In this document: in pieces, positions 5,055 to 42,834 of the stretch
Layout of the letters: each line of letters starts with the position of its first letter
How positions within the stretch are numbered: position 1 is the first letter of the stretch
NCBI GenBank assembly: GCA_016181405.1
Contig: JACOZJ010000004.1
Span: forward strand, 71,479 to 114,312
DNA length: 42,834 bases
Origin: Candidatus Wildermuthbacteria bacterium
GTDB lineage: Bacteria; Patescibacteriota; Minisyncoccia; Minisyncoccales; UBA10102
Direction of reading: 5' to 3'
The notes under the pieces: model-generated
The model's input: only the letters and a program-made list of their open reading frames with translations
The model's database searches: none
What the model was told of the DNA's origin: nothing
Made by a program: the position numbers and the translations under genes

Positions 5055-7466
5055 TCACATACACCTACTAAATCCGCATCCCTTGCAGCTAATGCATCCT
5101 TCTGCCATTACAAGCTGGGCACCGCAATCCGGGCACCCCGGCATAAATCCAAAATCCGCCATGGAAGGGTCTCCCTCTTTGGCAAAAGCAAATACTTCTT
5201 GTTTCTCTGGCCGTTCTAAAATATCCTCTATCTGCCTTACTCCCGTAACATGCTCCTCGAGCACCCTGCCGATGGCGTCGGGGAGAGAAAGCACCGTGCC
5301 TTTTTCCGTAAATATCGGCATTGGCCCCCGAATTCCCTTGAGGTCGCTGATCACTTCCTCCACACGAATGCCAGCCCTCATGGCAAGAGAAGAAAGTCTG
5401 CAGATTGCCTCTGATTGTTCCTGGAAAAACCCTCCGCTCTTTCCAATAGTAGCGAAGATCTCAAATGGCTTGCCGGCTTCGTCGTCGTTTATCGTAATAT
5501 ACAAGTTGCCGTACCCTGTTTTCATTCGATAGGTCTTACCCACCATTACTTCTGGCCGTTTCCGGGGGACAACTCCTTCCGAGATCTGCCCTTCGCCTTG
5601 GGCCGGAACACCCGTTTCTACTTTTGTAGAAGGGGCAGTTCCGGGTTTCTCGGTAGTAGAAACAATATTATCGCCATTGCCCACATTTAAAATCTGGATG
5701 CTGCGGCTTCCGTCGCGGTATACTGTTGCCGACTTGCATCCCAATTTCCAGGCAGAAATAAAACTCTCGCCAACATCCTCTTTTGTCGCAGAATGGGGAA
5801 AGTTTATTGTTTTGGAAATTGAATTATCCACATGGCGCTGGAACGCGGCCTGCATTTCCATATGCGCCCTCCCTGAAATGTCCATTGCCACCACAAAAGT
5901 CTCGCGAAGCTCTTTGGGAAGCCACTCAATACTCTGAATGCTTCCTTCTGCCATAACCTTTTCCATAATCTCTTTCTGCTGGACCTCCGTGAACTCGATT
6001 CTATCCAATGCTTCCTGGAAGTATTTGTTGAAATAGCGATACTGTTGGCCATCCTTATCCTGTTTGACATAGGCTAAGGCAAAGTTCGGCTCCACGCCAG
6101 AAGAGCAATCAAACATCATAGAAATAGAACCGGTGGGAGCAACCGTCGTTAAAGCAGCGTTGCGGCGTTTAATGCCTTGGTCAGGAAAAATACTCTTGTC
6201 CGAATTGGGAAATTCACCCTTCTCCCGAGCAAGCTCTTCGGACATTTTATGCGCCTCTTCGTTGATAAATCCCATAACCTTTTCTGCCGTATGGATTCCC
6301 TCTGCAGAGTCGTACCTGATACCCAATTGATACAGCATATCTCCAAACCCCATAATTCCAAGGCCAATTCTGCGGTTTTTTTGCGCCAGCTCCGTAACTT
6401 GAGGCACTGGAAAATCGAATTTGTCTATTACATTATCCATGAGACGCGCCGCTGTCCTAGTGACAAAGCGAAGGCGTTCCCAGTCTATTTCCTTGTTTGC
6501 CACGAATTTGGCAAGGTTAATTGAACCTAAATTGCAGTTGTCATACGCATGCAAAAACTGCTCCCCGCATGGATTGGAAACAGCTATTGGCCCCAAGCCA
6601 GGCAAGGGATTGGTCCGGTTAATAGTATCAATAAAAGCAATGCCAGGTTCGCCATTCAGCCACGCGTGTTCCACTAGTAGATCAAACAGCTCCCTCACAG
6701 TCATATCAACTTCCGCGGCATCGTACACGGTGCCGTTCGGGTGCCGGAGAACCTTGTGGGGTTTCATTTTTCTCCCGTTGAATTGGCAATACCACTGCGT
6801 ATCCGGATTCTCCACAAGCTGACGCATAAACTCATCTGTCACGGTTACGGAAATGTTAAAATTGCGAATTTCGCCTTCAACGGTTTTACACTCGATGAAA
6901 TCGAGCACGTCAGGATGATCTACCCGTATCATTGCCATATTCGCCCCATGCCTGCCCTGCTGCTTAATAGTGCCGAAGGCAGTGTCGTACACCTTTAAAA
7001 AGGTTACGGGGCCAGAAGCCCTGCCCCGCGATTTTTTCGTAGGGGAGTTTGCGGGACGCATTTCCGACAAATCAAACCCAAGCCCGCACCCTGCCTGCTG
7101 GAGAAGCGCCGCCTCCTTGAGGGTTTGAAAAATGCTTTCCATAGAATCCTCAATGCGAAGTACAATGCAGTTTGCGATAAGCGGAGTTTCTCCCCCCGCA
7201 TTAGTAAGAGTGCGTCCGGCCGGAGTGTACTCTTTGGACGCCATTATGGCAAAGAATTCTTTTGCGACCTGCTCTGCAGCCTCCTCATCTTTTCCATAGC
7301 CCCTCTCCACATCAGCCAAGGCGTTTGCCACTCTCTCGAACATATCAGCTGGCGTTTCCTGGTTCCCTTCGTCGTCTACCATCAAATAGCGTTTCTGCAT
7401 CATTTTAAGCGCATTTTCTGAAAACGTCCCGTTCGCCTTATCTTTAACCTCTTGAGGTACTCGCAT
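5055..7466 (-). CDS. nrdJ: Adenosylcobalamin-dependent (class II) ribonucleotide reductase with fused TSCPD domain and Cys-rich tail
   Basis: TPAGRTL, NCIV, GGCG-like AGCGLG, NPCGEQ, CNLGSINL, APTGSIS, AFQRHVDNSISKTIN and C-terminal CPDCG..CISCKGCG; no ATP cone evident. Confidence 0.95.
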   Translation of the reverse strand: MRVPQEVKDKANGTFSENALKMMQKRYLMVDDEGNQETPADMFERVANALADVERGYGKDEEAAEQVAKEFFAIMASKEYTPAGRTLTNAGGETPLIANCIVLRIEDSMESIFQTLKEAALLQQAGCGLGFDLSEMRPANSPTKKSRGRASGPVTFLKVYDTAFGTIKQQGRHGANMAMIRVDHPDVLDFIECKTVEGEIRNFNISVTVTDEFMRQLVENPDTQWYCQFNGRKMKPHKVLRHPNGTVYDAAEVDMTVRELFDLLVEHAWLNGEPGIAFIDTINRTNPLPGLGPIAVSNPCGEQFLHAYDNCNLGSINLAKFVANKEIDWERLRFVTRTAARLMDNVIDKFDFPVPQVTELAQKNRRIGLGIMGFGDMLYQLGIRYDSAEGIHTAEKVMGFINEEAHKMSEELAREKGEFPNSDKSIFPDQGIKRRNAALTTVAPTGSISMMFDCSSGVEPNFALAYVKQDKDGQQYRYFNKYFQEALDRIEFTEVQQKEIMEKVMAEGSIQSIEWLPKELRETFVVAMDISGRAHMEMQAAFQRHVDNSISKTINFPHSATKEDVGESFISAWKLGCKSATVYRDGSRSIQILNVGNGDNIVSTTEKPGTAPSTKVETGVPAQGEGQISEGVVPRKRPEVMVGKTYRMKTGYGNLYITINDDEAGKPFEIFATIGKSGGFFQEQSEAICRLSSLAMRAGIRVEEVISDLKGIRGPMPIFTEKGTVLSLPDAIGRVLEEHVTGVRQIEDILERPEKQEVFAFAKEGDPSMADFGFMPGCPDCGAQLVMAEGCISCKGCGFSRCM

Positions 7467-11322: not shown

Positions 11323-11333
11323 TCGGCTCCCTG

Positions 11334-11405
11334 TGCCCTCGGCAGGAATTGAACCTGCATCAGGAGCTTAGGAGTCTCCTGTTCTATCCGTTGAACTACG
11401 AGAGC
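11334..11405 (-). tRNA. tRNA-Arg (CCT)
   Basis: Cloverleaf; loop CT-CCT-AA; no encoded CCA. Confidence 0.93.
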
Positions 11406-11465
11406 TTTTCAAACAAATGCATTGATGATTATAACACAATATGTTAATAACTTCCAGAGAAGATA

Positions 11466-11493
11466 TTGACAAGGTTTCTTTGCCCTTTATAAT
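11466..11493 (+). promoter_or_regulatory. Consensus sigma70 promoter
   Basis: TTGACA-N16-TATAAT. Confidence 0.8.
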
Positions 11494-11550
11494 AAGTTTT
11501 GTACATAACATTAAAGGTCACTATATGATGAGTTTTCTTTTAAAAAATAA

Positions 11551-11733
11551 ATGACTCCTGACGAAATGTTTCCACGTATTCTTGCCGATGCCGACGACGA
11601 GATGACTATGGATGACGACTCAATGGACGGAGAGGAAGCGGACGATGAAGACGAAGACGAGGATGAAGATGAAAAAGACGATGATGACGAAGCCGCGACA
11701 GAGGACGATTTTGGGGCAGAGGAGGAAGAGTAG
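11551..11733 (+). CDS. Small hyper-acidic protein (60 aa)
   Basis: About 35 of 60 residues are D/E; has its own consensus promoter and a downstream terminator. Confidence 0.7.
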   Translation: MTPDEMFPRILADADDEMTMDDDSMDGEEADDEDEDEDEDEKDDDDEAATEDDFGAEEEE

Positions 11734-11780
11734 TTTTGTTTTGCCAAATCTTGCATAGCGAGATATTGCTTGCATTTTGA

Positions 11781-11813
11781 AACCAAAACCCCGCGGTGCG
11801 CGGGGTTTTGGTT
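11781..11813. terminator. Bidirectional terminator
   Basis: Perfect 15-bp stem aaccaaaaccccgcg/cgcggggttttggtt between convergent genes. Confidence 0.8.
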
Positions 11814-11841: not shown

Positions 11842-13440
11842 TTATGCTGCTGGCGGTTGGTTGTCTCCTCGCTTTCGCATTGTTGCTCGGGCAGTTAAGG
11901 CAAAGAGAACAATGAGCGTCAAGGCCGCAAAGGCAATCCCTATCCATGGGAGCCACTTGTAGCGCTCGGTAAGTCTACTTTCTTCCATATCGCAAGCATC
12001 GCCGATGCCATCTGCGTCAACATCAGTCTGTCCCCTGTTGGGATCGCTTGGACAGTTGTCTTGACTGTTGATAATGCCATCTCTGTCGAAATCGTCGCAA
12101 GCGTCGCCCCTTCCATTGCTATTTACGTCGGCCTGATCTGTGTTGCTGGTCGCCACGCAATTATCAAGAATGTCCGGCACGCCATCTGCGTCGACATCCG
12201 CTTGTTTGTAATAAACATTCGTCTGTGAGGGAGGCGATGGCAAATTGAGCACACCCTGATTATCCGCCAGGTTGCCTGCTTCTCTCACAGCCGGTGACAC
12301 ATATCGATCTGGGTTAAAGTATATTTGATAGCTATGACCTGGTTGCGCAAGAAACCGCAACGCGTGCGAACTGGTTCTCGCAGCATTTTCTTGCGCAAGC
12401 TTGAGTTCAGATATGCGAAGAGGCTGGGCATAGGTGAGTGTGATTGTCCATCTCGCGGAGGTTGTTCTTGGGAAATGAACAGTCGTTTGCCTCATCGGCG
12501 TTTTTGCAAGCACAATGTCGTTTGCGCTATCTACTTGCGCCCGTATTTCAATCGATGTAGGCAAAGCAACGTGGCTGTCAAGCAAGAGGGTGAGCGAGGA
12601 AGACGTGATAGTCCTTGCGCTTGCCACAACAATTCGGACGCTCCCTTGTGTTTCTTCCGGCAGAGCAAAAGCAGTATACGTCTGCGCGTCGCGGTCGATC
12701 ATCCTTGCGGAGTCTATGGCAGATTGATTTGTGGCACTAATAGTTATAGGTAATTCATTTATTGATGTTTCTTGTTTGAAAAAAAGAGGCTGGAAACTAT
12801 CGGTAGCTTCGTCTAAAACCGCAAAACCGAAACGCTCCAATTCTTCATTTTCAAACGGCATTTCTACCACTGTTGGCACAATAATCGATACGGGCTGCAA
12901 TTCTTTCAGCTCCTGGTATGCGCTTATCGTTTCTTGTGAGATCGTAGACAAGGCATCTACACTGCTCGCGTATGCAAGTATGCCCCCTGCGCCAACGACA
13001 AGAAGCACTGACAATACTTTCTTCCCCCTGCCGACAAACGCGGTGGTTGTTAAGAGTATACCCACGAGGAAAAATGTTACAATGCGCCCGGCAAGCGCCA
13101 TGTCCCAGACATCAACGACAAGCAGGCGTACAACCACAAGCGTGAGCAAAACGGCGCCGTATATCCGCACGATCTTCTTCTCTTGCATTTTCCCGTAAAA
13201 GTAGGCGCCAAGCCCTATAATGGTGTACAAAACCAAAGAAATCATAGTGGCAATGTCATCGCTTAATGCTGTGGCGTGCAGAGAGAGCCACAAAAGAATA
13301 TGCAGATACACTGAACCTACGATAAGCAACCCAGCTGTGAAATGAGCTGATTCTTGTTCCGTCGCTTCGCGCTTTTGTTTTTGTATCCACAAGAAGAAAA
13401 GCCCCAATCCGGAAAAGAGTACTGCTAGTACGAGCAACAC
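11842..13440 (-). CDS. DUF2339 C-terminal membrane segment fused to an exported protein with thrombospondin type-3 repeats and a C-terminal TM anchor
   Basis: N-terminal TM helices (LFVVDVW-like LLVVDVWDM...GRIV.FFLVG); DVDADGVPDILDNC...DACD Ca-binding repeats at ~11990-12200; C-terminal WLPWIGIAF TM; the frame is open upstream to about 13510. Confidence 0.75.
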   Translation of the reverse strand: MLLVLAVLFSGLGLFFLWIQKQKREATEQESAHFTAGLLIVGSVYLHILLWLSLHATALSDDIATMISLVLYTIIGLGAYFYGKMQEKKIVRIYGAVLLTLVVVRLLVVDVWDMALAGRIVTFFLVGILLTTTAFVGRGKKVLSVLLVVGAGGILAYASSVDALSTISQETISAYQELKELQPVSIIVPTVVEMPFENEELERFGFAVLDEATDSFQPLFFKQETSINELPITISATNQSAIDSARMIDRDAQTYTAFALPEETQGSVRIVVASARTITSSSLTLLLDSHVALPTSIEIRAQVDSANDIVLAKTPMRQTTVHFPRTTSARWTITLTYAQPLRISELKLAQENAARTSSHALRFLAQPGHSYQIYFNPDRYVSPAVREAGNLADNQGVLNLPSPPSQTNVYYKQADVDADGVPDILDNCVATSNTDQADVNSNGRGDACDDFDRDGIINSQDNCPSDPNRGQTDVDADGIGDACDMEESRLTERYKWLPWIGIAFAALTLIVLFALTARATMRKRGDNQPPAA

Positions 13441-14572
13441 AAAGAAGTCTTGATTAAATACGCTGGTATTCCAGGCACGAGAAACTACACTTGCTACCGA
13501 ATGGCGTACGCAATAAGGGAGATTATCCCGCTTTCAACCGCGTAGGCGATCACGAGAGTTGCGCCTTGCAATTCTTGTGCGGTTGCGGCAGCAAGCATGG
13601 CAATGCTCACCCCCAAATATACATAAAAAGGCTCATATCGTTGAGTTAAGCGAAAAGCGAGAAATCCGCCGGAAGCGAACACCAAAATCCAGGCTATCAT
13701 GAGGATGCTTTTCCATTCTTCCGGTGCGGCCATCAGAATCCATACAAGAAGGAATAATCCAGTGCCACCTGCGGTTATAAGATCGGGAATAATTCTCTCT
13801 TTTGTCAGCTTTAAAATACCGAGTATGCTAGTCACGAAGAAAGCAGCAGTAAATGCGAAAACAAAAGCAAGAATTATTTCAACGCTCACCGATCTGCTTA
13901 TAAAAAGATGGGGTAGACTCCACAGGGCTATCATGACAAGGGCTGCTGCTCCAAGGATGCGCCAGCCGGTGATGGCAACCACCCATACCGTACCAACTGT
14001 TACAACAAGAAGATATGAGAATAAAGCGATAAAATTCGCATCCGAAGAACAAAAACAGCGCTCAAGAACATGATGCCGAGCGCTGTGAAGGGAGTGAAAA
14101 AGTCGTATAGTTCTCTTGCGGCGAATGTGGTAAGCAAAACGGTCGAAGACCCTAAAACGAGAAAGGTGCTCCCTTGATATACATACGTTTTGATCCGCCA
14201 CCATCCAAGAAGCAGAATAAGGACGCCCGCAAACATGCCAAGGGCGATACGCCCCGCTGGACCAATCCAGTTATTCACAAAGGCGTAAGTTGCAAGCCAT
14301 CCAAAACCAATGAGCAAAAGAACAGCACCAAGCTTTAACAGCCAATCTTCTTTTGCCCAAACAAGGAATTTGTCGAACGCCGAAGATCCTTCGGCTTGAG
14401 GGATGAGCGCTTGAGGTGATGTTTGAGGTTGAGGGATTTGAGAGATTTGTTGGGGTACTCCTTCTTCTCGCCACACTCCTTTTATTTCCATCAACTTTTC
14501 AATTCTACGAATGCGGCTATGAAACCAAAAGGCGACTACAGTAAGAATAAGAATCACAAGAAAAGATGACAT
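13441..14572 (-). pseudogene. DUF2339 family membrane protein split into three reading frames
   Basis: 14000-14572 carries W..KLG..LLLIGFGW..TYAF.NNWI.P.GR; hydrophobic coding continues in the -1 frame from ~14048 to 13494 and again in the -1 frame from ~13500. Confidence 0.7.
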
Positions 14573-14621: not shown

Positions 14622-14627
14622 GCATAT

Positions 14628-14655
14628 ACCAAAAAACATCGGGATGGCGATTGTT
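14628..14655 (-). repeat. Repeat A copy 1 (degenerate terminator-like unit)
   Basis: ACCAAAAAAC...GATGGCGATTGT, similar to 15421-15483 and 16661-16698. Confidence 0.55.
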
Positions 14656-14662
14656 CGGTTCA

Positions 14663-14691
14663 ATGGGCGTTTATGGAACGGCATGAGAACC
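14663..14691 (-). repeat. Repeat B copy 1
   Basis: atggg-cgtttatggaacggcatgagaacc matches 16201-16230 at 25 of 30 aligned positions. Confidence 0.7.
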
Positions 14692-14695
14692 CTTC

Positions 14696-15409
14696 TCATC
14701 CAATAATCGTGTCGTTTTCCACATCACCCTCAATATGGATATAACTATCCTTTAGCATTTCACATTTGGTAATTTTCAGCGCCTTAATGTTCACCAAATC
14801 TGCTTCGCTATGGAGCGATTCGCCGTCAACCAAAGTTGAGGTATTTTTGCCCCCAACCAAACAGGGCGCGATAACGATGGAAATCCTGTCTATCAATTTA
14901 TTTCTTAAAAGAATTGAGTTGAGCGTTCCGCCTGTCTGGATGGTCATTCTTTCAATACCATATTCTTCTTTCAGCCGCCTGAAGACATCAGGAAAATCAA
15001 TTCTTCCTTCGCAGTAAAGAATTTCAATGTTATCGTATTGCTCTTTTACTGTAAACGCGGGATGATTTTTCTTATTCGTAACCAGGTAGAATATTTTGGA
15101 CCTCTTCGCAAAATATTCACACCCGTTTTTATTGAGGTAAGGTTTATCATCCACAACCACAAAGCTTACAGGAATTTTTTCTACATCCTCGAGGTTCTTT
15201 TCGTTAACACCCACCTTAGCCTGTACTCTTCCGCTATTAAAAGAAACTAAGTCAGTTTTCTCTTCGAGCTCATAATACTGCTTGAGGCCCTCTTTTATAC
15301 CCCTGATTCTTGAGAAATCTTTGTCCACGTCTAACGTGTCCACATCTCCCGTAGATATTTTGCCGTCGAGCGACTCGAGCAAGAAAAGCGTTGTGAGAGG
15401 TCGATTCAT
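14696..15409 (-). CDS. RibD C-terminal / dihydrofolate reductase-fold protein
   Basis: SLDGKIS, MTIQTGGTLNS.LL..KLIDRISIVIAPCLVGG. Confidence 0.85.
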   Translation of the reverse strand: MNRPLTTLFLLESLDGKISTGDVDTLDVDKDFSRIRGIKEGLKQYYELEEKTDLVSFNSGRVQAKVGVNEKNLEDVEKIPVSFVVVDDKPYLNKNGCEYFAKRSKIFYLVTNKKNHPAFTVKEQYDNIEILYCEGRIDFPDVFRRLKEEYGIERMTIQTGGTLNSILLRNKLIDRISIVIAPCLVGGKNTSTLVDGESLHSEADLVNIKALKITKCEMLKDSYIHIEGDVENDTIIG

Positions 15410-15420
15410 AATCTCACTTT

Positions 15421-15483
15421 ACCAAAAAACCGCCCTTCGACAAAGCTCAGGGGCAAGCCTGAATGGCGATTGTCTGGATACCC
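15421..15483 (-). repeat. Repeat A copy 2, interrupted by a REP-like insert
   Basis: ACCAAAAAACCGCCC [TTCGACAAAGCTCAGGGGCAAGCCT] GAATGGCGATTGTCTGGATACCC; the flanks match copy 3 at 14/15 and 21/23 positions. Confidence 0.8.
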
Positions 15484-15504
15484 CTAACCATACTTCGCTA
15501 GGAC

Positions 15505-15523
15505 CCTATGGGTCGCCTATGGG
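15505..15523 (-). repeat. Repeat B copy 2
   Basis: CCTATGGGTCGCCTATGGG is 18/19 identical to 16198-16216. Confidence 0.8.
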
Positions 15524-15525
15524 TT

Positions 15526-16089
15526 TTATGAGTTCTTTTGAATGTACCTCTCAACCTCCCGAGGGAGCAGGAGCCTACTTAATGTGGCGTATTTTTGCAT
15601 ACCAAGCGATGGCTTATGCGCGAATCCCACATATTCTAATTTCTTCTTCCTATACCGTAGATACTGTATAGCGGGGATAAGATCCGTATCAGAGCTCACA
15701 AGAATAGCTGTATCGTATTGGTCATCAACCGCCCCAATTACTAAGTCTATCGCTATTTTCACGTCAGTGCCCTTCTCTTTATATGTTCCACCCGTGGGCA
15801 TAATCCTTCCTCGTTTAATGACGAATCCGTCTTTTTGGAGAGTCGAGAAAAACTTCTGTTGCCCCCTGACAAGGCTTAAACTCTTTGTTGAGCCATCGGC
15901 ACTACTAAAAACTCCTGTGTAATAGCGCTTGGAAACACATATCCTCTCATCAACCAGCTCGCCGACAAAACCATTTAAATCAAACTTGGACCCTTTTGGA
16001 AAACCGATTTCTTTATCCTTAAGGTAATTGTAGAAGTTGCTCCCATCGATATATACCACTACTCGTTCCTTTTGCCGATTGCCTTCCAT
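15526..16089 (-). CDS. NYN (LabA/DUF88, PIN-like) domain nuclease
   Basis: VYIDGSNFY, KEKGTDVKIAIDL, AILVSSDTDLIPAI acidic catalytic motifs. Confidence 0.9.
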   Translation of the reverse strand: MEGNRQKERVVVYIDGSNFYNYLKDKEIGFPKGSKFDLNGFVGELVDERICVSKRYYTGVFSSADGSTKSLSLVRGQQKFFSTLQKDGFVIKRGRIMPTGGTYKEKGTDVKIAIDLVIGAVDDQYDTAILVSSDTDLIPAIQYLRYRKKKLEYVGFAHKPSLGMQKYATLSRLLLPREVERYIQKNS

Positions 16090-16096
16090 GGAAGAA

Positions 16097-16105
16097 ATTA
16101 TAGCA
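16097..16105 (-). promoter_or_regulatory. Extended -10 promoter, leaderless NYN mRNA
   Basis: TGCTATAAT ends 7 nt before the ATG. Confidence 0.65.
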
Positions 16106-16116
16106 AGTTGAGCAAC

Positions 16117-16156
16117 AAAAAACTACCCTTGCCGGAGCAGGGGTAGTGTTCATATT
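16117..16156 (-). ncRNA. Candidate ~40-nt small RNA or attenuator leader upstream of the NYN gene
   Basis: Promoter TTGACA-N17-TAGGAT (16163-16191), then hairpin ACTACCCCTG-CTCCGG-CAAGGGTAGT running into a U-tract. Confidence 0.45.
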
Positions 16157-16197
16157 ACCTTTATCCTATACCAAGGGATACGCCCTGTCAAGCCTAT

Positions 16198-16230
16198 CCT
16201 ATGGGTCGCTTATGGGACGGTATCAGAACC
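16198..16230 (-). repeat. Repeat B copy 3
   Basis: CCTATGGGTCGCTTATGGGACGGTATCAGAACC. Confidence 0.8.
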
Positions 16231-16250
16231 TGTTTTGCACAATAAATTAA

Positions 16251-16287
16251 AAAAGAACCCCTCCGCAACTTCTTAGGTGTGGAGGGT
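16251..16287 (-). terminator. Intrinsic terminator of the small Cys-rich ORF
   Basis: accctccaca...tgcggaggggt stem followed by TCTTTTTT on the minus strand. Confidence 0.6.
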
Positions 16288-16308
16288 GATGACGGGCATT
16301 ACGATTGA

Positions 16309-16557
16309 TTACTCCTTGTCTCGATTGCTCGTTTGAGAACACTGGCAGAAAACGCACCAATAGCATTTGCATCCCCTTGGATGTTGCCAATGCTCTTTTG
16401 TTGGAATCCCTGATTGAGCGGCCGCACCATCACATAACAGGCACACCCTCGCTTCTGCTACGCCAGAGTAGCAATCCGTACCCGAATACGTCCTTGATTC
16501 AAATGTGTGAGAATGAGAAGCCCAATCAAAAGCAAGCACGACGTATGTTCCACTCAT
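16309..16557 (-). CDS. Small Cys/His-rich protein (82 aa), putative metal-binding
   Basis: AGGAG 7 nt before the ATG; candidate promoter TTTACA-N17-TATAGG (16600-16628); downstream terminator; CxxC and H..CxCxxCxxCxC motifs. Confidence 0.55.
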   Translation of the reverse strand: MSGTYVVLAFDWASHSHTFESRTYSGTDCYSGVAEARVCLLCDGAAAQSGIPTKEHWQHPRGCKCYWCVFCQCSQTSNRDKE

Positions 16558-16660
16558 TACAGAGCTCCTTGCAATAAAATGGTACTAGGCTACTTCCACC
16601 CTATAGCATCACCCGGATGGGATGTAAAGTTTTGCGTAATGGTTCAGTACCTTTGCACCA

Positions 16661-16698
16661 ACCAAAAAATCGCCCGAATGGCGATTCTTTGGATACCC
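16661..16698 (-). terminator. Repeat A copy 3: terminator of the tRNA-Arg/His transcript
   Basis: AATCGCC-ATTCG-GGCGATT hairpin followed by TTTT on the minus strand. Confidence 0.75.
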
Positions 16699-16710
16699 AA
16701 TATTGTTGTT

Positions 16711-16732
16711 GTCCCTCGACTTCGTTCGGGAC
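16711..16732. repeat. Short REP-like palindrome
   Basis: GTCCC-TCGACTTCGTTC-GGGAC. Confidence 0.45.
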
Positions 16733-16759
16733 ACTCAATTTTGCAGGGCAAAATTAGTG

Positions 16760-16831
16760 GGTGGCTAAGCGGATTCGGACCGCCTCTAGGAGCTCCACAA
16801 ACTCCTGTGCTGCCATTACACCATAGCCACC
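16760..16831 (-). tRNA. tRNA-His (GTG)
   Basis: Encoded G-1 pairs with C73; loop TT-GTG-GA; atypical T-loop TCCGAAT. Confidence 0.9.
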
Positions 16832-16844
16832 ATGACACACGATG

Positions 16845-16916
16845 TGTCCCTAGGGGGAGTCGAACCTCCATCCCAGGCTTAGAAGGCCCGTGCTCTATCC
16901 ATTGAGCTATAGGGAC
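16845..16916 (-). tRNA. tRNA-Arg (TCT)
   Basis: Cloverleaf; loop CT-TCT-AA. Confidence 0.95.
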
Positions 16917-33295: not shown

Positions 33296-35071
33296 CTAGG
33301 GACAGCTCCCTATAGTACACATCTTCATTTTATCAAACCAGCGCTGCGCATCTCCGCTATCAACTGATTCTCCTTCCCACTGAAGGGTAGCTCCTTGAAT
33401 CCCATTGTTGATTGCATATCTTGCACAAGGGTTATAACTAAAATCCCACGGTGTAGCGTTTCGTTGGTCGCCCCCATTAACAGCACCAGAACCACACCCG
33501 CTTTTACCGCATATAAGGTCGCCGTCTACAACCTTAGCGTCACCCGCAAAGATTGTGGCAACTTGAGGATACAAGGGAGTGCTTAAACCATCATCCCGAA
33601 CCGTCTGAACAACTAGGTCTACTGCTTGCTGTATCGTTCGGGGGTCATCTCCAGTCCAGGAATTCTCGCAATAACTCTGTAATTGAATAACCAGCCCGTC
33701 CAAGTACTGTGCCATTTTCCCATAATCCCACGTTATTCTGGATCCGCACCGGTTAGCGTAAAAGAGAGCGCCTCCTGTTGGCATTCCATACAAACGGAAG
33801 CTTGTGCCATGCGCTCCATTTGCATCATCTACAATTTTCCGGGCAATTCTAAAATTCTCGTATGTTGTACCAGGGTCCCATCGAAACTCCTGTATACCTG
33901 GACCGTCAAAACCACAACCCACAGGGCCGTCCGGACCCTCCTCATAATTCTCATACCCATATAAAAGCGCATCAAAACAAGCATTATCCAATGGCGGAGA
34001 AGCCGTGTTTAAAGCAAACTTTAGAGACTCATGGCCATCTGATCTTGCAACCATGAAAAGAGAACGCCCAGAGAATCTATTCCTGAAATCCCGGCAACGC
34101 CTATTGAGATAGTCAACGTCTGCCTGACTGCTGATTTGCGAATTGCTTTCACCTGCTACGCTTCTTTCCCTCCGCAGCAACATGATATCCCCAGTTTGCA
34201 CATAATTATAAAACTGGTTCAGCACGTGGTTTTCTACGCTAGGAAATATAAAAAATCCAATGGGGGGTCGGCTACCGGGAACTGGAGTGGGCCCCGGCGT
34301 TGGCGTAGCACCTGAAGTAGGTGTTGGCGTAGCACCAGGGGTCGGCGTAGCTCCAGCAGAGGGGGCAGGTGGCAACGGAGACGTTGCCACCTCCGTAGCG
34401 ACGTTAACAATAGCGGTAGAGCTTGCGGTTCCCGTACTACCCGTGCAGTCTATCTGGAAGGTATGTGTACCCACAGAAAGTCCTGAAATAGTTTGTTCTC
34501 CACCTCCAGCGGCGGGCGAGCCGCTCCAATCCCCAGAAGCAGTGCAGCTTGTTGTGTCAAACGTACTCCAGCTAAGGACCACGGGCTGCCCAACCTTGAT
34601 GCTCAAGGGAATAGCAGAAAGTCTCACTGATGTGGGGATTTTGCAGTCGATTTGCCACCATGTGCCAGTGCCGCCAAAGGAAGCAGATCCCAAAGAGGTA
34701 AGAAGAAGATTAATGAACAGCCAAGCGCCATACACAATGAGCACGCCTATAACTATGGCAAGAAAGATCTGTTGCCCTTGCTTAACGCGCGCGGGGTTTC
34801 CCATGGAAGAAAGCCAGATAAAACCTCCCCAGGCGAGCAGAAGAGAAGCAACGATGGGGACAACGGCAAAGCCGCCGTTGAACACGGAGGGGACAAGGAG
34901 AAAGGTGATGATGTTGTTGAGAAGTGAAAAGCCGTGGCAAAGAGTACAGGGAGACTCGCTCGCTCCTCCGCAGGGCACAAGGCCTGCGGCAGAGGTGGGG
35001 GCGGGGGCAAGAGCAAAGAGAACACCGCCTGCGAACAAAAGAAAGAGAAGAAAAACAAAAACTTTTTTCAT
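33296..35071 (-). CDS. TrbC/VirB2-like (CPR-type) pilin fused to an Ig-like module, a Pro/Thr linker and a ~320-aa C-terminal domain
   Basis: Signal peptide; GLVPCGG..PCTLCH..L.NNII.FL; GGF.WL.S.GNP..V.QG...F...VIG..IVYGAWLFIN.L; LSWST..TTSCTASGDW..; GATPTP repeats. Confidence 0.8.
   Translation of the reverse strand: MKKVFVFLLFLLFAGGVLFALAPAPTSAAGLVPCGGASESPCTLCHGFSLLNNIITFLLVPSVFNGGFAVVPIVASLLLAWGGFIWLSSMGNPARVKQGQQIFLAIVIGVLIVYGAWLFINLLLTSLGSASFGGTGTWWQIDCKIPTSVRLSAIPLSIKVGQPVVLSWSTFDTTSCTASGDWSGSPAAGGGEQTISGLSVGTHTFQIDCTGSTGTASSTAIVNVATEVATSPLPPAPSAGATPTPGATPTPTSGATPTPGPTPVPGSRPPIGFFIFPSVENHVLNQFYNYVQTGDIMLLRRERSVAGESNSQISSQADVDYLNRRCRDFRNRFSGRSLFMVARSDGHESLKFALNTASPPLDNACFDALLYGYENYEEGPDGPVGCGFDGPGIQEFRWDPGTTYENFRIARKIVDDANGAHGTSFRLYGMPTGGALFYANRCGSRITWDYGKMAQYLDGLVIQLQSYCENSWTGDDPRTIQQAVDLVVQTVRDDGLSTPLYPQVATIFAGDAKVVDGDLICGKSGCGSGAVNGGDQRNATPWDFSYNPCARYAINNGIQGATLQWEGESVDSGDAQRWFDKMKMCTIGSCP
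34278..34357 (-). repeat. Tandem coding repeats (GATPTP) forming a linker
   Basis: GT(T/C)GGCGTAGC(A/T)CC recurs three times on the plus strand (34299, 34323, 34341). Confidence 0.7.
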
Positions 35072-35080
35072 CTTCTTTCT

Positions 35081-35109
35081 ATTATACCGTGCGGAAAAAA
35101 AGTGTGCAA
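35081..35109 (-). promoter_or_regulatory. Promoter of the pilin-fusion gene
   Basis: TTGCAC-N17-TATAAT, ending 9 nt before the ATG. Confidence 0.65.
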
Positions 35110-35249
35110 GAAAAACTATCCTTTTGCCTGGTCTTTACTCGTGAAAAACACAGGAATAATTTTTATATCTTATGGTGGGATATTCTAAGGTACCGCTCTC
35201 TGTGGAAAACATCCTTTCCGTATGCACACTCTTGAGGTATGAATAAATA

Positions 35250-36074
35250 ATGCGCAAAAGCAAAGAAAAGAAAAAGCGGATTGTGCTGGTTGAAGATGAA
35301 CCAACGCTGGCAAATCTTATCGAGGCGGGATTACAAGAACAGGGCTATGAAGTGCGATCGGCAAGAGACGGCAAAAAGGGGCTACAGCTTATCCGGGACG
35401 TAAAGCCTGATCTGGTACTGCTCGATATTATGCTCCCCGGACTTAAGGGCTTTGATATTTTAGAAAAGCTCTCGAAAGAAGACCATGCGCTTCCTGCTTT
35501 GCCTGTAATTATAATTTCAAATTCCGGGGATTCTATTGAAATTGAGCGGGCTCTCCGCATGGGAGTGAAAGATTATTTGGTGAAAGTAAACTTCAACCCA
35601 AACGAAGTCATAGCGAAAGTGAACAACACGCTTCAAGCCCACGTCGAGGAGCGGAAGAAAAAGTCAAAACTACCAAAGACCGTGAAGGGAAAACGGGTTC
35701 TCCTCGTAGAAGACGATACCCTTCTTTCCGACATGCTGGAGAAGGAATTTGTCGCAAAACACTACGAGGTGCACAAGGCGTGGAATGCGGAAAAGGCAAG
35801 AAGCATTTTGGCGGAGCACGAAGTCAACGTTATTGTGCTGGACCTCGTTCTCCCGGACGAGCATGGTTTAAGTTTTTTGAAGGAGCTGCAAAAGAACGAC
35901 AGCACCAAGAGCATACCAGTGATCATTGCTTCAAATCTAGGGCAACAGGAAGAGATTGACCAAGGATTACGGGCCGGCGCAGTAGATTACATCGTGAAAA
36001 CCAATACGGTTCCAAGAGAAATTGTGGAAAAAATCGAAAAGCTACTCCAAAAAGGTCAAAGGGATTACAAATAA
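35250..36074 (+). CDS. Tandem receiver-domain protein (REC-REC, no output domain)
   Basis: VLVEDE..LLDIMLP..YLVK and LLVEDD..VLDLVLP..YIVK; both phospho-acceptor Asp residues are retained. Confidence 0.92.
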   Translation: MRKSKEKKKRIVLVEDEPTLANLIEAGLQEQGYEVRSARDGKKGLQLIRDVKPDLVLLDIMLPGLKGFDILEKLSKEDHALPALPVIIISNSGDSIEIERALRMGVKDYLVKVNFNPNEVIAKVNNTLQAHVEERKKKSKLPKTVKGKRVLLVEDDTLLSDMLEKEFVAKHYEVHKAWNAEKARSILAEHEVNVIVLDLVLPDEHGLSFLKELQKNDSTKSIPVIIASNLGQQEEIDQGLRAGAVDYIVKTNTVPREIVEKIEKLLQKGQRDYK

Positions 36075-41118: not shown

Positions 41119-41272
41119 TTTCTGATTGCTGCAATTTCGAGCGGGCAAAAATTTCCTCCCCTTGAACCCCTCCATTTTTGCCCGCGAATCCGTATTTCGC
41201 TCCGCCATACTGACCGAGTCCGCGAGGCGGTGGGGCGGGGCGTTCGTCGAGCGTACGATTTTGTTCAGAGCC
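41119..41272. repeat. Right site rc(Y)-core-rc(X) (attR-like), with a 27-bp insert in X
   Basis: Exact blocks of 22, 45, 38 and 22 bp shared with the left site. Confidence 0.92.
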
Positions 41273-41380
41273 CCGCCAAAAGCATTCCCGCCGCTACGCG
41301 GCGGTTCGAGCCGATGTATAATGAGATTACAAATTGTCGGTGTAATGCAAAAACCCTTTATCAATTTAATCCCCGAAGCT

Positions 41381-42834
41381 ATGATCAAATATTTTATATA
41401 TTGCAGAAAATCGAGCGAGAATGAGGAACGCCAAGTTTTGAGCATTGAAGCGCAACTGACGGAGCTTCGGGAATTCGCCAAGCAACAAAATCTGTTTGTG
41501 GTAAAAGAGTTTTATGAAAGTAAAACAGCGAAAGAGCCTGGTCGCGAAGTATTTAACGAAATGCTTGGCGAAATTGAAAAAGGTTCTGCCTCGGGAATCT
41601 TAGCGTGGAATCCAGACCGTTTAGCGAGAAACTCGATTGACGGTGGCAAGGTCATATATTTTGTGGATACGCTAAAAATTGTTGCGCTAAAATTCCCGAC
41701 ATTTTGGTTTGAAGCGACACCCCAAGGAAAATTTATGTTAAGTGTCGCTTTCGGACAAGCAAAATATTACACCGACAATTTAAGAGAAAACATTTTGCGC
41801 GGTATTCGACAAAAAATACGCCGTGGTGAATTATCGGCAAAAGCCCCTCTCGGATATTTCAACGAGCCGAGATTGCGAACGATTGAGCCAGATAAAAAGA
41901 CCTTTGACAAAGTAAAAGAAGCGTTAGGGGCTTTTGCTACGGGGCAATACACGCTCACGGCAATTCAGCGCAAAATGTTTTCTCTTGGCTTGGTTGGCGC
42001 ACGGAGCGGTAAACCCCTTGTCCTCGCCTCGGTAGAGCATATTTTGAAAAATCCTTTTTATTATGGACATTTTCAGTACCGAGGCAAGGTGCATCAGGGT
42101 TCGCATAAGCCAATGATTTCAAAGAAACTTTTTGACAAAATACAGGAAGCACTTGTTGCCAATGGAAAGCCCCGCAAAAAGCGAGGAGAGAAAGGTTTGC
42201 TATACAAAGGATTCGCTGTATGCGGTGAGTGCGGCTATGCGATAACTGCTGAACGGAAGATAAAGAAAAGTGGATTGGTGTATCACTACTATCACTGCAC
42301 TTTCAAAAGCCGCACTCAAAAATGTTCACAAACTCGCTTTTTGCGGGAAGAAGAATTGTCGCGACAAGTGCAAGACATGGTTCAAAAAGTTTCTTTGCCT
42401 GATGAGTGGCGAAAAACTTGAAACTGAAAACGCCGATGTCCACCACTCATCAAACCTTTTCGTTCAAAATCTCAAAAACGATATTTCCGCCGTTTCAGCG
42501 CCTATCTCTCGCCTCACAGACGCTTACCTAAACGAAGCGCTGGAACTTGGCGAGTACTTGGAGCGCAAGAACGTGCTGACGGCGGAAAAACGGACGCTGG
42601 AAGAAAAATTGAGCGATTTTGAACGCAAAGGTAATCATTGGCTCGAACTCATGCGAAACTGGATTATTGAAGCCAACCAAGCTGGAAATCTCATTAAACA
42701 AGAAAATCTTTCGGGGATGAAAGATTTTCTTGCAGACATCGGCTCGAACCGCCGCGTAGCGGCGGGAATGCTTTTGGCGGAATTCAAAATGCCTTGGCGG
42801 GACTTGGCGAAAATACCAGTCCGAACCCGCGCCT
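41381..42834 (+). pseudogene. Large serine recombinase (resolvase + recombinase + Zn-ribbon + coiled coil) with a +1 frameshift at ~42416; runs off the window end
   Basis: YCRKSSE..RQVLSIEAQ, DRLARN, LKNPFYYG, CGECG..YYHC; TGA at 42419; coding (LETENAD..LTDAYL..GNHWLE..IGSNR) continues from 42417 to the window end. Start 41381 or 41345. Confidence 0.9.

Follow-up and report, generated by a model that had tools for sequence, protein, structure and literature searches.

Accessory genes are stacked at fixed chromosomal entry sites in several described systems. In staphylococci, the staphylococcal cassette chromosome (SCC, including SCCmec) is integrated at rlmH (orfX) by Ccr-type large serine recombinases (LSRs); tandem units at this one fixed entry site are split by direct repeats of the integration-site sequence, and many units carry no recombinase (pseudo-SCC) and are presumed to have been moved in trans. 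The ssrA islands of Dehalococcoides were built up by serial integration with serine recombinases, and in integrons, which encode an IntI-type tyrosine integrase beside the array, the cassettes are mostly promoterless, depend on a common Pc promoter and end in attC sites, imperfect inverted repeats of 57-141 nt (R''-L''...L'-R') that fold as single-strand hairpins. Among the tycheposons of Prochlorococcus, 910 of 937 elements carry tyrosine recombinases, and the scars left by these elements are partial tRNA copies (bioRxiv 10.1101/2020.12.28.424599). Here we examine a gene array next to tRNA-His in a 42,834-nucleotide stretch of DNA (the window, whose coordinates are used throughout) from contig JACOZJ010000004.1 of a Candidatus Wildermuthbacteria bacterium, an ultra-small member of the Candidate Phyla Radiation (CPR)/Patescibacteria with a genome of 729 kb. 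Three unrelated genes of this array are each followed by a short repeat, B. We consider it likely that the region from 14.6 to 16.8 kb of the window is the tRNA-proximal part of a stack of modules integrated by LSRs, and that B is the element-side (P) half-site of these elements. The features of the region, in the order in which they follow tRNA-His, are:

tRNA-His(gtg), 16759-16830, minus strand, called by ARAGORN and Rfam, 3' end ..GGTCCGAATCCGCTTAGCCACCCA
P' arm remnant with hairpin hp1, 16700-16758, minus strand; hp1 is GTGTCCCGAACGAAGTCGAGGGACA at 16710-16734
A1, 16661-16699, minus strand, at the proximal end of module 1, intrinsic terminator (AATCGCC-ATTC-GGGCGATT, then a T-run)
Cys-rich open reading frame (ORF) of 82 aa, 16309-16557, minus strand, cargo of module 1, without a Pfam match
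B1, 16198-16235, minus strand, full P-type box aaACAGGTTCTGATACCGTCCCATAAGCGACCCATAGG
NYN module leader, 16097-16191, minus strand, promoter TTGACA-17-TAGGAT at 16163-16191, GC hairpin with T-run at 16117-16147 and a second -10 box after it
NYN-domain (PIN-like) nuclease gene, 15526-16089, minus strand, cargo of module 2, PF01936, E = 6e-20
B2, 15505-15537, minus strand, diverged copy with its 3' 19 nt intact and its 5' part overlapping the NYN stop codon
A2, 15421-15483, minus strand, A-type terminator split by an insert of ~23 nt (~15430-15456)
RibD_C/DHFR-fold reductase-like gene, 14696-15409, minus strand, cargo of module 3, PF01872, E = 2e-18
B3, 14659-14691, minus strand, decayed copy, GGTTCTCATGCCGTTCCATAAACG-CCCATTGAA, with a 1-nt deletion; orthologue in the relative L069
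A3, 14622-14655, minus strand, degenerate, AACAATCGCCATCCCGATGTTTTTTGGTA, stem lost; orthologous to an A unit in L069

Like SCC, the arrays at tRNA-His have a fixed entry site, stacked units, direct repeats and units without a recombinase; unlike SCC, their target is a tRNA gene and not rlmH, and their units are single genes of 0.6-1.7 kb with their own terminator and promoter instead of multi-kb islands. They share with tycheposons the entry at a tRNA or tmRNA 3' end, the pushing of older elements inward, the repeated att scars and the rarity of integrase-bearing elements beside long-lived cargo. They differ from tycheposons in that the scar is an element-side arm that mimics the tRNA end with a spacing shifted by 5 nt, in their single-gene modules and in the ~0.7-Mb genome that holds them. 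Integrons, including sedentary chromosomal integrons and clusters of attC sites lacking integron-integrases (CALINs), are alike in forming one-orientation arrays of small, mostly single-gene cassettes that end in a conserved site, and their cargo is similar (toxin-antitoxin pairs, GNAT, NUDIX), a likeness by function only; unlike integrons, the locus has no IntI, attI or attC hairpin, its genes have their own promoters and terminators, and its recombinase was likely a serine and not a tyrosine enzyme.

The original prediction, made from the window alone, stated that each of the three minus-strand genes is trailed by B, and all three copies were located; the box reads aACAGGTTCTnATnnCnTCCCATAGGCGACCC and was found at the end of each module, the third copy being diverged and having an orthologue in L069. 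The 19-mer core of B, CCTATGGGTCGCYTATGGG, occurs at 15505-15523 and 16198-16216 (two matches against 0.01 expected), and B2 is full-length with a diverged outer motif. The terminator unit A was likewise located where it had been predicted, after tRNA-His (A1), again after the NYN gene (A2) and in degenerate form after the RibD_C gene (A3), with a 23-mer core at 15461-15483 and 16676-16698 (two matches against 0.00 expected). A genome-wide scan found neither B nor A elsewhere in the 729-kb genome, where hp1 is also single-copy. Since A, B and hp1 occur nowhere else, the observation is confirmed, B is not scattered through the genome, and a genome-wide repetitive extragenic palindromic (REP) element or miniature inverted-repeat transposable element was rejected as an identity for any of the three. 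Two details of the prediction did not hold. The insert in A2 had been described as a REP, and it has one other copy in this genome (C2:569), though relatives carry copies. The tandem motif CCCATAGG-CGA-CCCATAGG of 11-bp period, put forward as typical of protein-binding sites, is peculiar to this genome: its second CCCATAGG is absent in other genomes and falls beyond the conserved box, the part of B kept across genomes being aACAGGTTCTnATnnCnTCC..TAG.CGACCC.

The locus was then compared across the family, which has a conserved frame, tRNA-Arg(tct)-tRNA-His ... acidic-protein gene-tRNA-Arg(cct)-Ala-Ser. The gap within this frame ranges from empty (0.3-0.5 kb) to ~10 kb. Empty sites were found in G021 (488 bp) and G007 (291 bp); one module each in G012 (NYN), G003 (a MazEF-like pair) and G009 (a 418-aa protein); at least three modules in G024, G185, L069 and this genome; and several in the metagenomic relative L067. 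The gap of G042 holds an island of ~9 kb. Depending on the genome, the modules carry NYN, MazEF, HicAB-like, Fic, NUDIX, GNAT, RibD_C, HD or NADAR genes, and each module ends in B; the integrated units are mostly single genes of 0.6-1.7 kb. Within the family, B was found in five of 36 genomes, in the homologous segment alone and nowhere else in those genomes. Arrays contain one to six copies of B, all in direct orientation, and the boxes are nearly invariant amid flanks that cannot be aligned. B is conserved in different genera and families of the order and is almost always located in the segment that runs from tRNA-His to tRNA-Arg(cct); more diverged copies occur in other families of the order (at least six in G185 and five in G175), where B separates HAD, NUDIX, GNAT, HD, NADAR, SRPBCC, DEAD-box helicase and Fic genes. 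Two observations were made along the way. A B box was present on a contig (L061, JBHHYH010000040.1) of a metagenome-assembled genome labelled Candidatus Scalinduaceae, which is probably a mis-binned Patescibacteria contig, or else a transfer. In addition, within the G185 array and directly after a 75-aa ORF, ARAGORN called an unusual tRNA-like gene whose anticodon has four bases (ggtt; L030, 3043-3115).

Comparison across genomes, which had been proposed as a check, revealed gain, loss and reordering of cassettes exactly at the tRNA-His end and at B. The DNA of the NYN module is 88% identical to that of G024 (flanks 72%) and 91-94% identical to that of L067/L066 (flanks 77%). Counted from tRNA-His, this module is first in G012, second here and in G024, and third in L067, and the MazEF module occupies rank one in G003 and L067 and rank three in G024. 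In L069 the flanks are 92% identical to those of this genome, the homology stops 13 nt past the 3' end of tRNA-His, and the content in common is hp1+A1 and RibD_C+B3+A3 alone; there hp1+A1 follow B boxes and not tRNA-His, all other modules differ, and the Cys-rich ORF is missing. The RibD_C gene is orthologous (92%) to the distal module of L069. A gene of 339 aa precedes RibD_C in L069 and L067 and has been lost here, and through its deletion the tail of A2 was joined to the bases immediately ahead of the RibD_C start codon.

The boundaries of the modules were examined next to tRNA-His and next to B. The right arm B' (AGCTTAGCTTGGGGCAAGGTGCGCTTAGCGCACC) follows tRNA-His in G024 (attB-like, with the look of an unoccupied site) and the last B in G009 and G012 (attR-like). 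A second right arm, P' (CGCATTTTTCCCAAGAACGAAGTGATTGG), follows tRNA-His in G009 (attL-like) and B in L069 and L062 (attP-like). All four junction types (tRNA-His/B', B/B', tRNA-His/P' and B/P') break in ..ACCC(C)A, and judged by their sequence they are those expected of site-specific recombination between the tRNA-His end and a B/P' site. In G009, one clean insertion of ~1.65 kb is flanked by the two hybrid junctions and is too small for a recombinase gene.

Family genomes were scanned for Resolvase domains, and one LSR adjoining tRNA-His was found, in G042, a member of the same family as this genome. This protein of 517 aa consists of PF00239 (Resolvase), PF07508 (Recombinase) and PF13408 (Zn_ribbon_recom) domains. 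Its gene sits at the head of the ~9-kb island on the strand opposite tRNA-His, with its last ~65 nt antisense to tRNA-His (tail ..NLNWGGRGDSNPRSS..). The far end of the island reads GGTTATAATAAGCTGTGGAGTGGGACCCCA/GTTCAAAC, and the antisense of this far arm extends the LSR frame as LNWGPTPQLIITLEDWKYMSIMREKLLEIKA, which matches the extended C termini of many LSR homologues, among them P0063 (..SNWLPTPTGIITILEDFEYMASLKEQLRLIKQF) and P0034. Because the far arm completes the LSR frame, the LSR ORF appears to span attP, and the element-side arm stays at the distal end. Beside attR of the same island, on contig L085 (oriented ~12800-12960), a second, inner P arm was seen in decayed form (antisense ..LPSPKLIILLEDTEYMAGLKQNL), and the two P arms suggest two successive integrations at the same tRNA-His. 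B-like boxes were also found at the 3' ends of LSR genes that have no tRNA nearby (P0018, P0113, P0037 and a second LSR on the P0018 contig, L090); one such box, aaaACAGGCTCTAATATTGTCCAGTCCCCAGAGCAAGTCACTTCT, encodes ..SDLLWGLDNIRACFIA and a stop codon, and is the type II box of the G185 and G175 arrays. The LSRs of other B-bearing genomes adjoin tRNA-Ile, -Pro, -Ser, -Leu, -Gln and -Arg, not tRNA-His. Close homologues of the tRNA-His LSR (57-63% identity) were noted at tRNA-Asn(gtt) (L093 and L094, P0029 and P0107; L092, P0040), which indicates that the targets of this LSR family include more than one tRNA; one such LSR, in a complete genome of Nealsonbacteria, ends against a tRNA 3' fragment without a 5' half.

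The LSR of G042 and P0001, a G042-like LSR of the tRNA-His type, have the same Resolvase, Recombinase and Zn_ribbon_recom domains as the enzymes of serine-integrase att systems (A118/LI integrase, Bxb1, phiC31), and the arrays share with these systems short asymmetric sites, an outer motif shifted by 5 bp and attL/attR/attB/attP-like junctions. Here, unlike in typical serine-integrase systems, integration targets a tRNA gene at its 3' end, the LSR ORF crosses attP, and the units are mostly recombinase-less single genes stacked in series. Three features of an LSR att-site array were thus found: an LSR at the target in at least one member (G042, not this genome), hybrid junctions and the +5 motif. 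The best NCBIfam match of P0001 is CcrB, at 122 bits against a cut-off of 900; since the tRNA-His LSR is no Ccr orthologue and the target is not rlmH, an SCC-type island was rejected. No recombination directionality factor was identified.

The geometry of the half-sites bears on the role of B. In serine integrases, a 9-bp motif for the zinc-ribbon domain occupies positions 16-24 of attP half-sites (Rutherford et al. 2013, PMC3783163), and in attB this motif sits 5 bp nearer to the centre than in attP (PMC3783163). The two arms compared were:

B type I arm, GGTTCTAATACCGTCCCATAGGCGACCCA, 29 nt, anchored on the shared core
tRNA-His 3' end arm, GGTCCGAATCCGCTTAGCCACCCA, 24 nt, anchored on the shared core

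In B, GGTTCTAAT begins 21 nt before GCGACCCA, and in tRNA-His, GGTCCGAAT begins 16 nt before GCCACCCA. Relative to the tRNA 3' end, the GGTTnnAAT box of B type I is thus displaced outward from the core by 5 nt, and an equal shift was measured in B type II (against tRNA-Asn) and in the G042 P arm (against its own tRNA-His). As read from the aligned arms, this +5 spacing matches the published attP/attB geometry, and GGTTnnAAT would then be the actual contact site of the protein. Placing the motif as published would put the centre at an AC dinucleotide common to B and tRNA-His, a position that fits the breakpoints. By inspection, the L069 and L062 junctions also contain an inverted GTTCT at a nearly symmetric distance in P'. 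A shift of 5 nt moves the codon phase by two, and therefore the LSR frame reads B as ..GRLWDGIRTCF followed by a stop codon. In this frame, 22 copies of B gave a synonymous:non-synonymous ratio of 306:402, compared to 129:617 and 28:645 in the other antisense frames; the sense-strand frame with the same third-codon positions scored about equally (324:422), so that the ratio cannot separate the two strands.

These data are consistent with the following series of events. LSRs would recombine the 3' end of tRNA-His, as an attB-type half, with attP on small circular elements, and in the excised form attP would consist of the B box (P arm), the core (..ACCCA) and the P' arm, in this order. An enzyme of the LSR family would thus act on B, with the crossover probably inside the shared core. 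On integration, the P' end would come to lie beside tRNA-His and the B box would close the element on its far side, so that every module ends in B, and each newcomer would displace the older modules towards tRNA-Arg(cct). Modules would start with a P' remnant and, in many cases, with an insulating A terminator; the T-run of A can pass into an extended -10 box, from which a leaderless or near-leaderless gene may be expressed. In LSR-bearing elements, B would double as the last 10-12 codons of the LSR, read antisense. The Cys-rich, NYN and RibD_C modules have no recombinase, and would either have been moved in trans or have been left behind after loss of an LSR gene. With no cognate LSR and with partly decayed sites, the stack of this genome is probably static today and a record of past captures. 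The original prediction offered two readings, serial integration that re-duplicates a site 3' of the tRNA and a cassette array, other than an integron, in which recombination takes place at B. Both survive here in merged form, except that B is not a chromosomal duplicate and would rather be the element-side P arm.

The proximal end of a module would be formed by hp1 and A together, as P' arm, terminator and promoter. The hp1/P' sequence recurs after B in the L069 junctions (93% and 83% identity), and the stretch AAGAACGAAGTGATTGGC, present in the P' of relatives, is missing beside tRNA-His in this genome. At the first junction tRNA-His stands in for B, which is why A1 is found behind it. In G185, in L069 and at A2 of this genome, the T-run of A leads into TGGTAGGAT, TGGTAGAAT or TGGTAAAGT, 6-8 nt before an ATG, which suggests that A is an insulating terminator fused to the predicted extended -10 promoter of a leaderless or near-leaderless mRNA; the A2 tail, TTTTTTGGTAAAGT, is such a candidate box and ends 6 nt before the ATG of RibD_C. 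Directly 3' of B, the NYN and MazEF modules carry a promoter-like TTGACA-17-TAnnnT. The claim that each gene has its own promoter therefore stood for NYN and probably for the Cys-rich ORF, which has a candidate promoter (TTTACA-17-TATAGG), a ribosome-binding site (AAGGAG) and its own terminator (~16251-16288). For RibD_C the one candidate is TGGTAAAGT, made by the deletion that fused the A2 tail to the gene. A stretch of ~45 nt at the start of contig C2 (C2:100-150) was found to be a paralogue of the A1-to-Cys-rich-ORF stretch (GGTTCAATACCTTTGCAGCACCC..AAAAAATCGCCAT), and the other copy of the A2 insert also lies near the start of that contig (C2:564-590).

Several points weigh against LSR-built stacking with B as the P half-site. 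Canonical serine integrases recombine attP with attB only, and under so strict a directionality the serial stacking of recombinase-less units is not predicted; stacking at an attL-type tRNA-His therefore needs relaxed specificity, for which the promiscuity of Ccr-type enzymes is a precedent, or another route. The P' arms are heterogeneous, NYN and MazEF modules having ATAAGTAGGC-TTGACA instead of hp1-A, and no symmetric outer motif was evident in the P' of these modules. Single B boxes lie away from tRNA-His in G076 and G068. The 3-base periodicity of variation in B was not significant by itself (permutation p = 0.23) and is suggestive only. No cognate LSR was found in this genome, and scans of genomes and metagenomes for B gave arrays with no LSR inside any of them. 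No LSR with the exact type I tail (..GRLWDGIRTCF) was found, a chimeric query returning its own template alone, and none appeared in a scan of viral contigs. The link of the type I box to LSRs is drawn through its homology to type II boxes and to the G042 arm. The genome's own serine recombinase (window 41126-42421) was rejected as the enzyme, since it shares only 28% identity with the tRNA-His LSR, belongs to another clade, is frameshifted and is located elsewhere. This gene, the sole serine recombinase of the genome, appears frameshifted within 41126-42834 (plus strand), its ORF stopping at 42421 and another frame being open from 42270 to the contig end.

Part of the same evidence could be read otherwise, the modules being nothing but stumps of several-kb LSR elements at tRNA-His, with no autonomous or trans-mobilised cassettes at all. 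G042 has a complete 9-kb LSR island at this very site, with the second, decayed P arm beside attR, and the 339-aa gene between A2 and RibD_C was deleted in this genome. Its sites are also decayed: P' is truncated beside tRNA-His, the outer motif of B2 has diverged, B3 has suffered a deletion and A3 has lost its stem. Stumps would not, however, account for compact NYN and MazEF modules that recur with the same boundaries at different ranks and in different genera with an identity far above that of the backbone, for the single 1.65-kb module of G009 with clean attL and attR and no space for an LSR, or for a B that is nearly invariant amid unalignable flanks. We regard the purely fossil origin as unlikely.

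There is also a slim chance that the locus is an integron analogue with its own, different recombinase (a Xer-type tyrosine recombinase or another protein), in which B would be attC-like and its likeness to LSR ends secondary. The modules do have the size and content of integron cassettes, every genome has one Xer-like tyrosine recombinase, and no LSR was present in or beside the B arrays examined (G000, G024, G003, G009, G012, G185, G175, G269, L069). However, the tyrosine recombinase occurs also in genomes without B, and the only one of this genome lies on another contig (C6:176248), is XerD/XerC/XerA-like and scores as XerD/XerC; its 104.6 bits on TIGR02249, the model of integron integrases, stay far below the cut-off of 265. 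Neither an attC-like imperfect palindrome nor an inverted-repeat partner is present in B, an asymmetric box of 28-38 nt with weak dyad symmetry (6 of 11 positions, counted by eye). The locus lies ~19 kb from an origin-like switch in GC skew, so B is not dif, and B-like boxes are the 3' ends of LSR ORFs, with the G042 island bounded by tRNA-His and an LSR-completing arm. Since the Xer-like recombinase is also present in B-less genomes and the origin-like switch is nearby, integron and dif readings were both rejected. Membership in the integrons proper fails on three features (no IntI by the array, no attC hairpins, cassettes that are not promoterless), and the prediction of a non-integron array was borne out, no integron integrase being present. 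The dif reading was considered together with Xer-exploiting elements such as integrative mobile elements exploiting Xer (IMEX) and pdif modules, whose 28-bp sites have inverted arms of XerC/XerD type and lie at the terminus or flank modules in inverted pairs; the nearness of the origin-like switch, the direct orientation of all B copies and the weak dyad symmetry speak against each.

Slimmer still is the chance that B is an element of RNA or transcription and that the gene differences arose by ordinary homologous recombination or deletion at tRNA genes and B, for although B always stands, in sense orientation, 3' of a gene and ahead of a terminator or promoter, immediately precedes the -35 box in the promoters of NYN and MazEF and is well conserved even in recombinase-less arrays, it has no stable hairpin (a weak one occurs on the antisense strand alone, in this genome alone), no covariation evident by eye among the aligned copies and no Rfam match (at the locus none but the tRNAs, even at E up to 10), its neighbour varies between promoter, terminator or nothing, and homologous exchange leaves the shared ..ACCCA break, the +5 spacing and the coding continuity with the LSR tail unexplained. 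Two other identities for B were rejected. Against a tRNA 3' fragment or pseudo-tRNA, its T-loop-like GGTTCTAAT has no complementary T-stem around it, and no B is called as a tRNA by ARAGORN. A free-standing mini-ORF, whichever the strand, would meet stops close by on both sides, and many copies of B have no start codon.

The remaining features of the locus complete the frame on both sides of the stack:

tRNA-Arg(tct), 16844-16916, minus strand, ARAGORN and Rfam (66.5 bits), conserved upstream anchor
Distal block, 11842-14572, minus strand, DUF2339 membrane-protein gene in three overlapping ORFs, Pfam
Distal anchor, 11333-11813, minus strand, terminator, acidic-protein gene and tRNA-Arg(cct), conserved in relatives
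tRNA-Arg(cct), 11333-11405, minus strand, part of the distal anchor

The tRNA-Arg(tct)-tRNA-His pair is syntenic in relatives. Between these two tRNAs, some relatives carry a gene for a small Cys-rich HNH-like endonuclease (L013 of G012, 6277-6786; a 169-aa ORF in L066/L067), whose 3' end overlaps the 5' end of tRNA-His and which is absent from this genome. The Cys-rich ORF of module 1 is a real gene, as it has 16 representative homologues, down to E = 6e-20. In the NYN leader, a strong predicted promoter reads into a GC hairpin and T-run ~40 nt downstream, ahead of NYN; the leader is conserved alongside NYN in G024 and L067, as a diverged version also in G012, and could be an attenuator or a small antitoxin-like RNA. 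The RibD_C protein matches TIGR00227 below the cut-off of that model, and its module has a GC content of 0.37-0.41 compared to 0.47 for the genome. The three DUF2339 ORFs are 190, 236 and 532 aa long, the last one adding thrombospondin type 3 repeats, and their Pfam matches cover the N- and C-terminal ends alone of the 659-position model. The block is probably a frameshifted gene; it is missing from L069 at the tRNA-His locus and may be a further module without a terminal B. At ~33300-35250, minus-strand genes with negative GC skew give way to plus-strand genes with positive skew, and this switch, ~19 kb from the cassette locus, looks like a replication origin.

No published description of such arrays was found in the full-text literature, in searches that did not name tRNA-His and dealt only partly with CPR/Patescibacteria. 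The present analysis contributes a side-by-side comparison of the four types of junction, the +5 spacing of the half-sites and the continuity of B with the recombinase reading frame. In the CPR/Patescibacteria, whose genomes are tiny, the acquisition of accessory genes is not well described, and the region from tRNA-His to tRNA-Arg(cct) is a defined hot spot that swaps compact single-gene modules across genera. If modules move in trans, the arrays would be a second, independent invention of an integron-like cassette system, and would offer compact serine integrases whose att sites are predictable and directed to tRNAs. More tentatively, and with the balance of probability on the other side, the LSR family that targets tRNA 3' ends, with ORFs that cross their own attP, may be a working gene-capture platform of Parcubacteria/Patescibacteria, integron-like yet built from unrelated parts, that captures, excises and reshuffles recombinase-less single-gene cassettes in trans, each with a P-type half-site (B), a P' arm, an insulating terminator and a promoter of its own, often a leaderless one; tRNA-His would then serve the whole phylum as one fixed docking site through which accessory and defence genes enter genomes that are otherwise considered poor in mobile elements.

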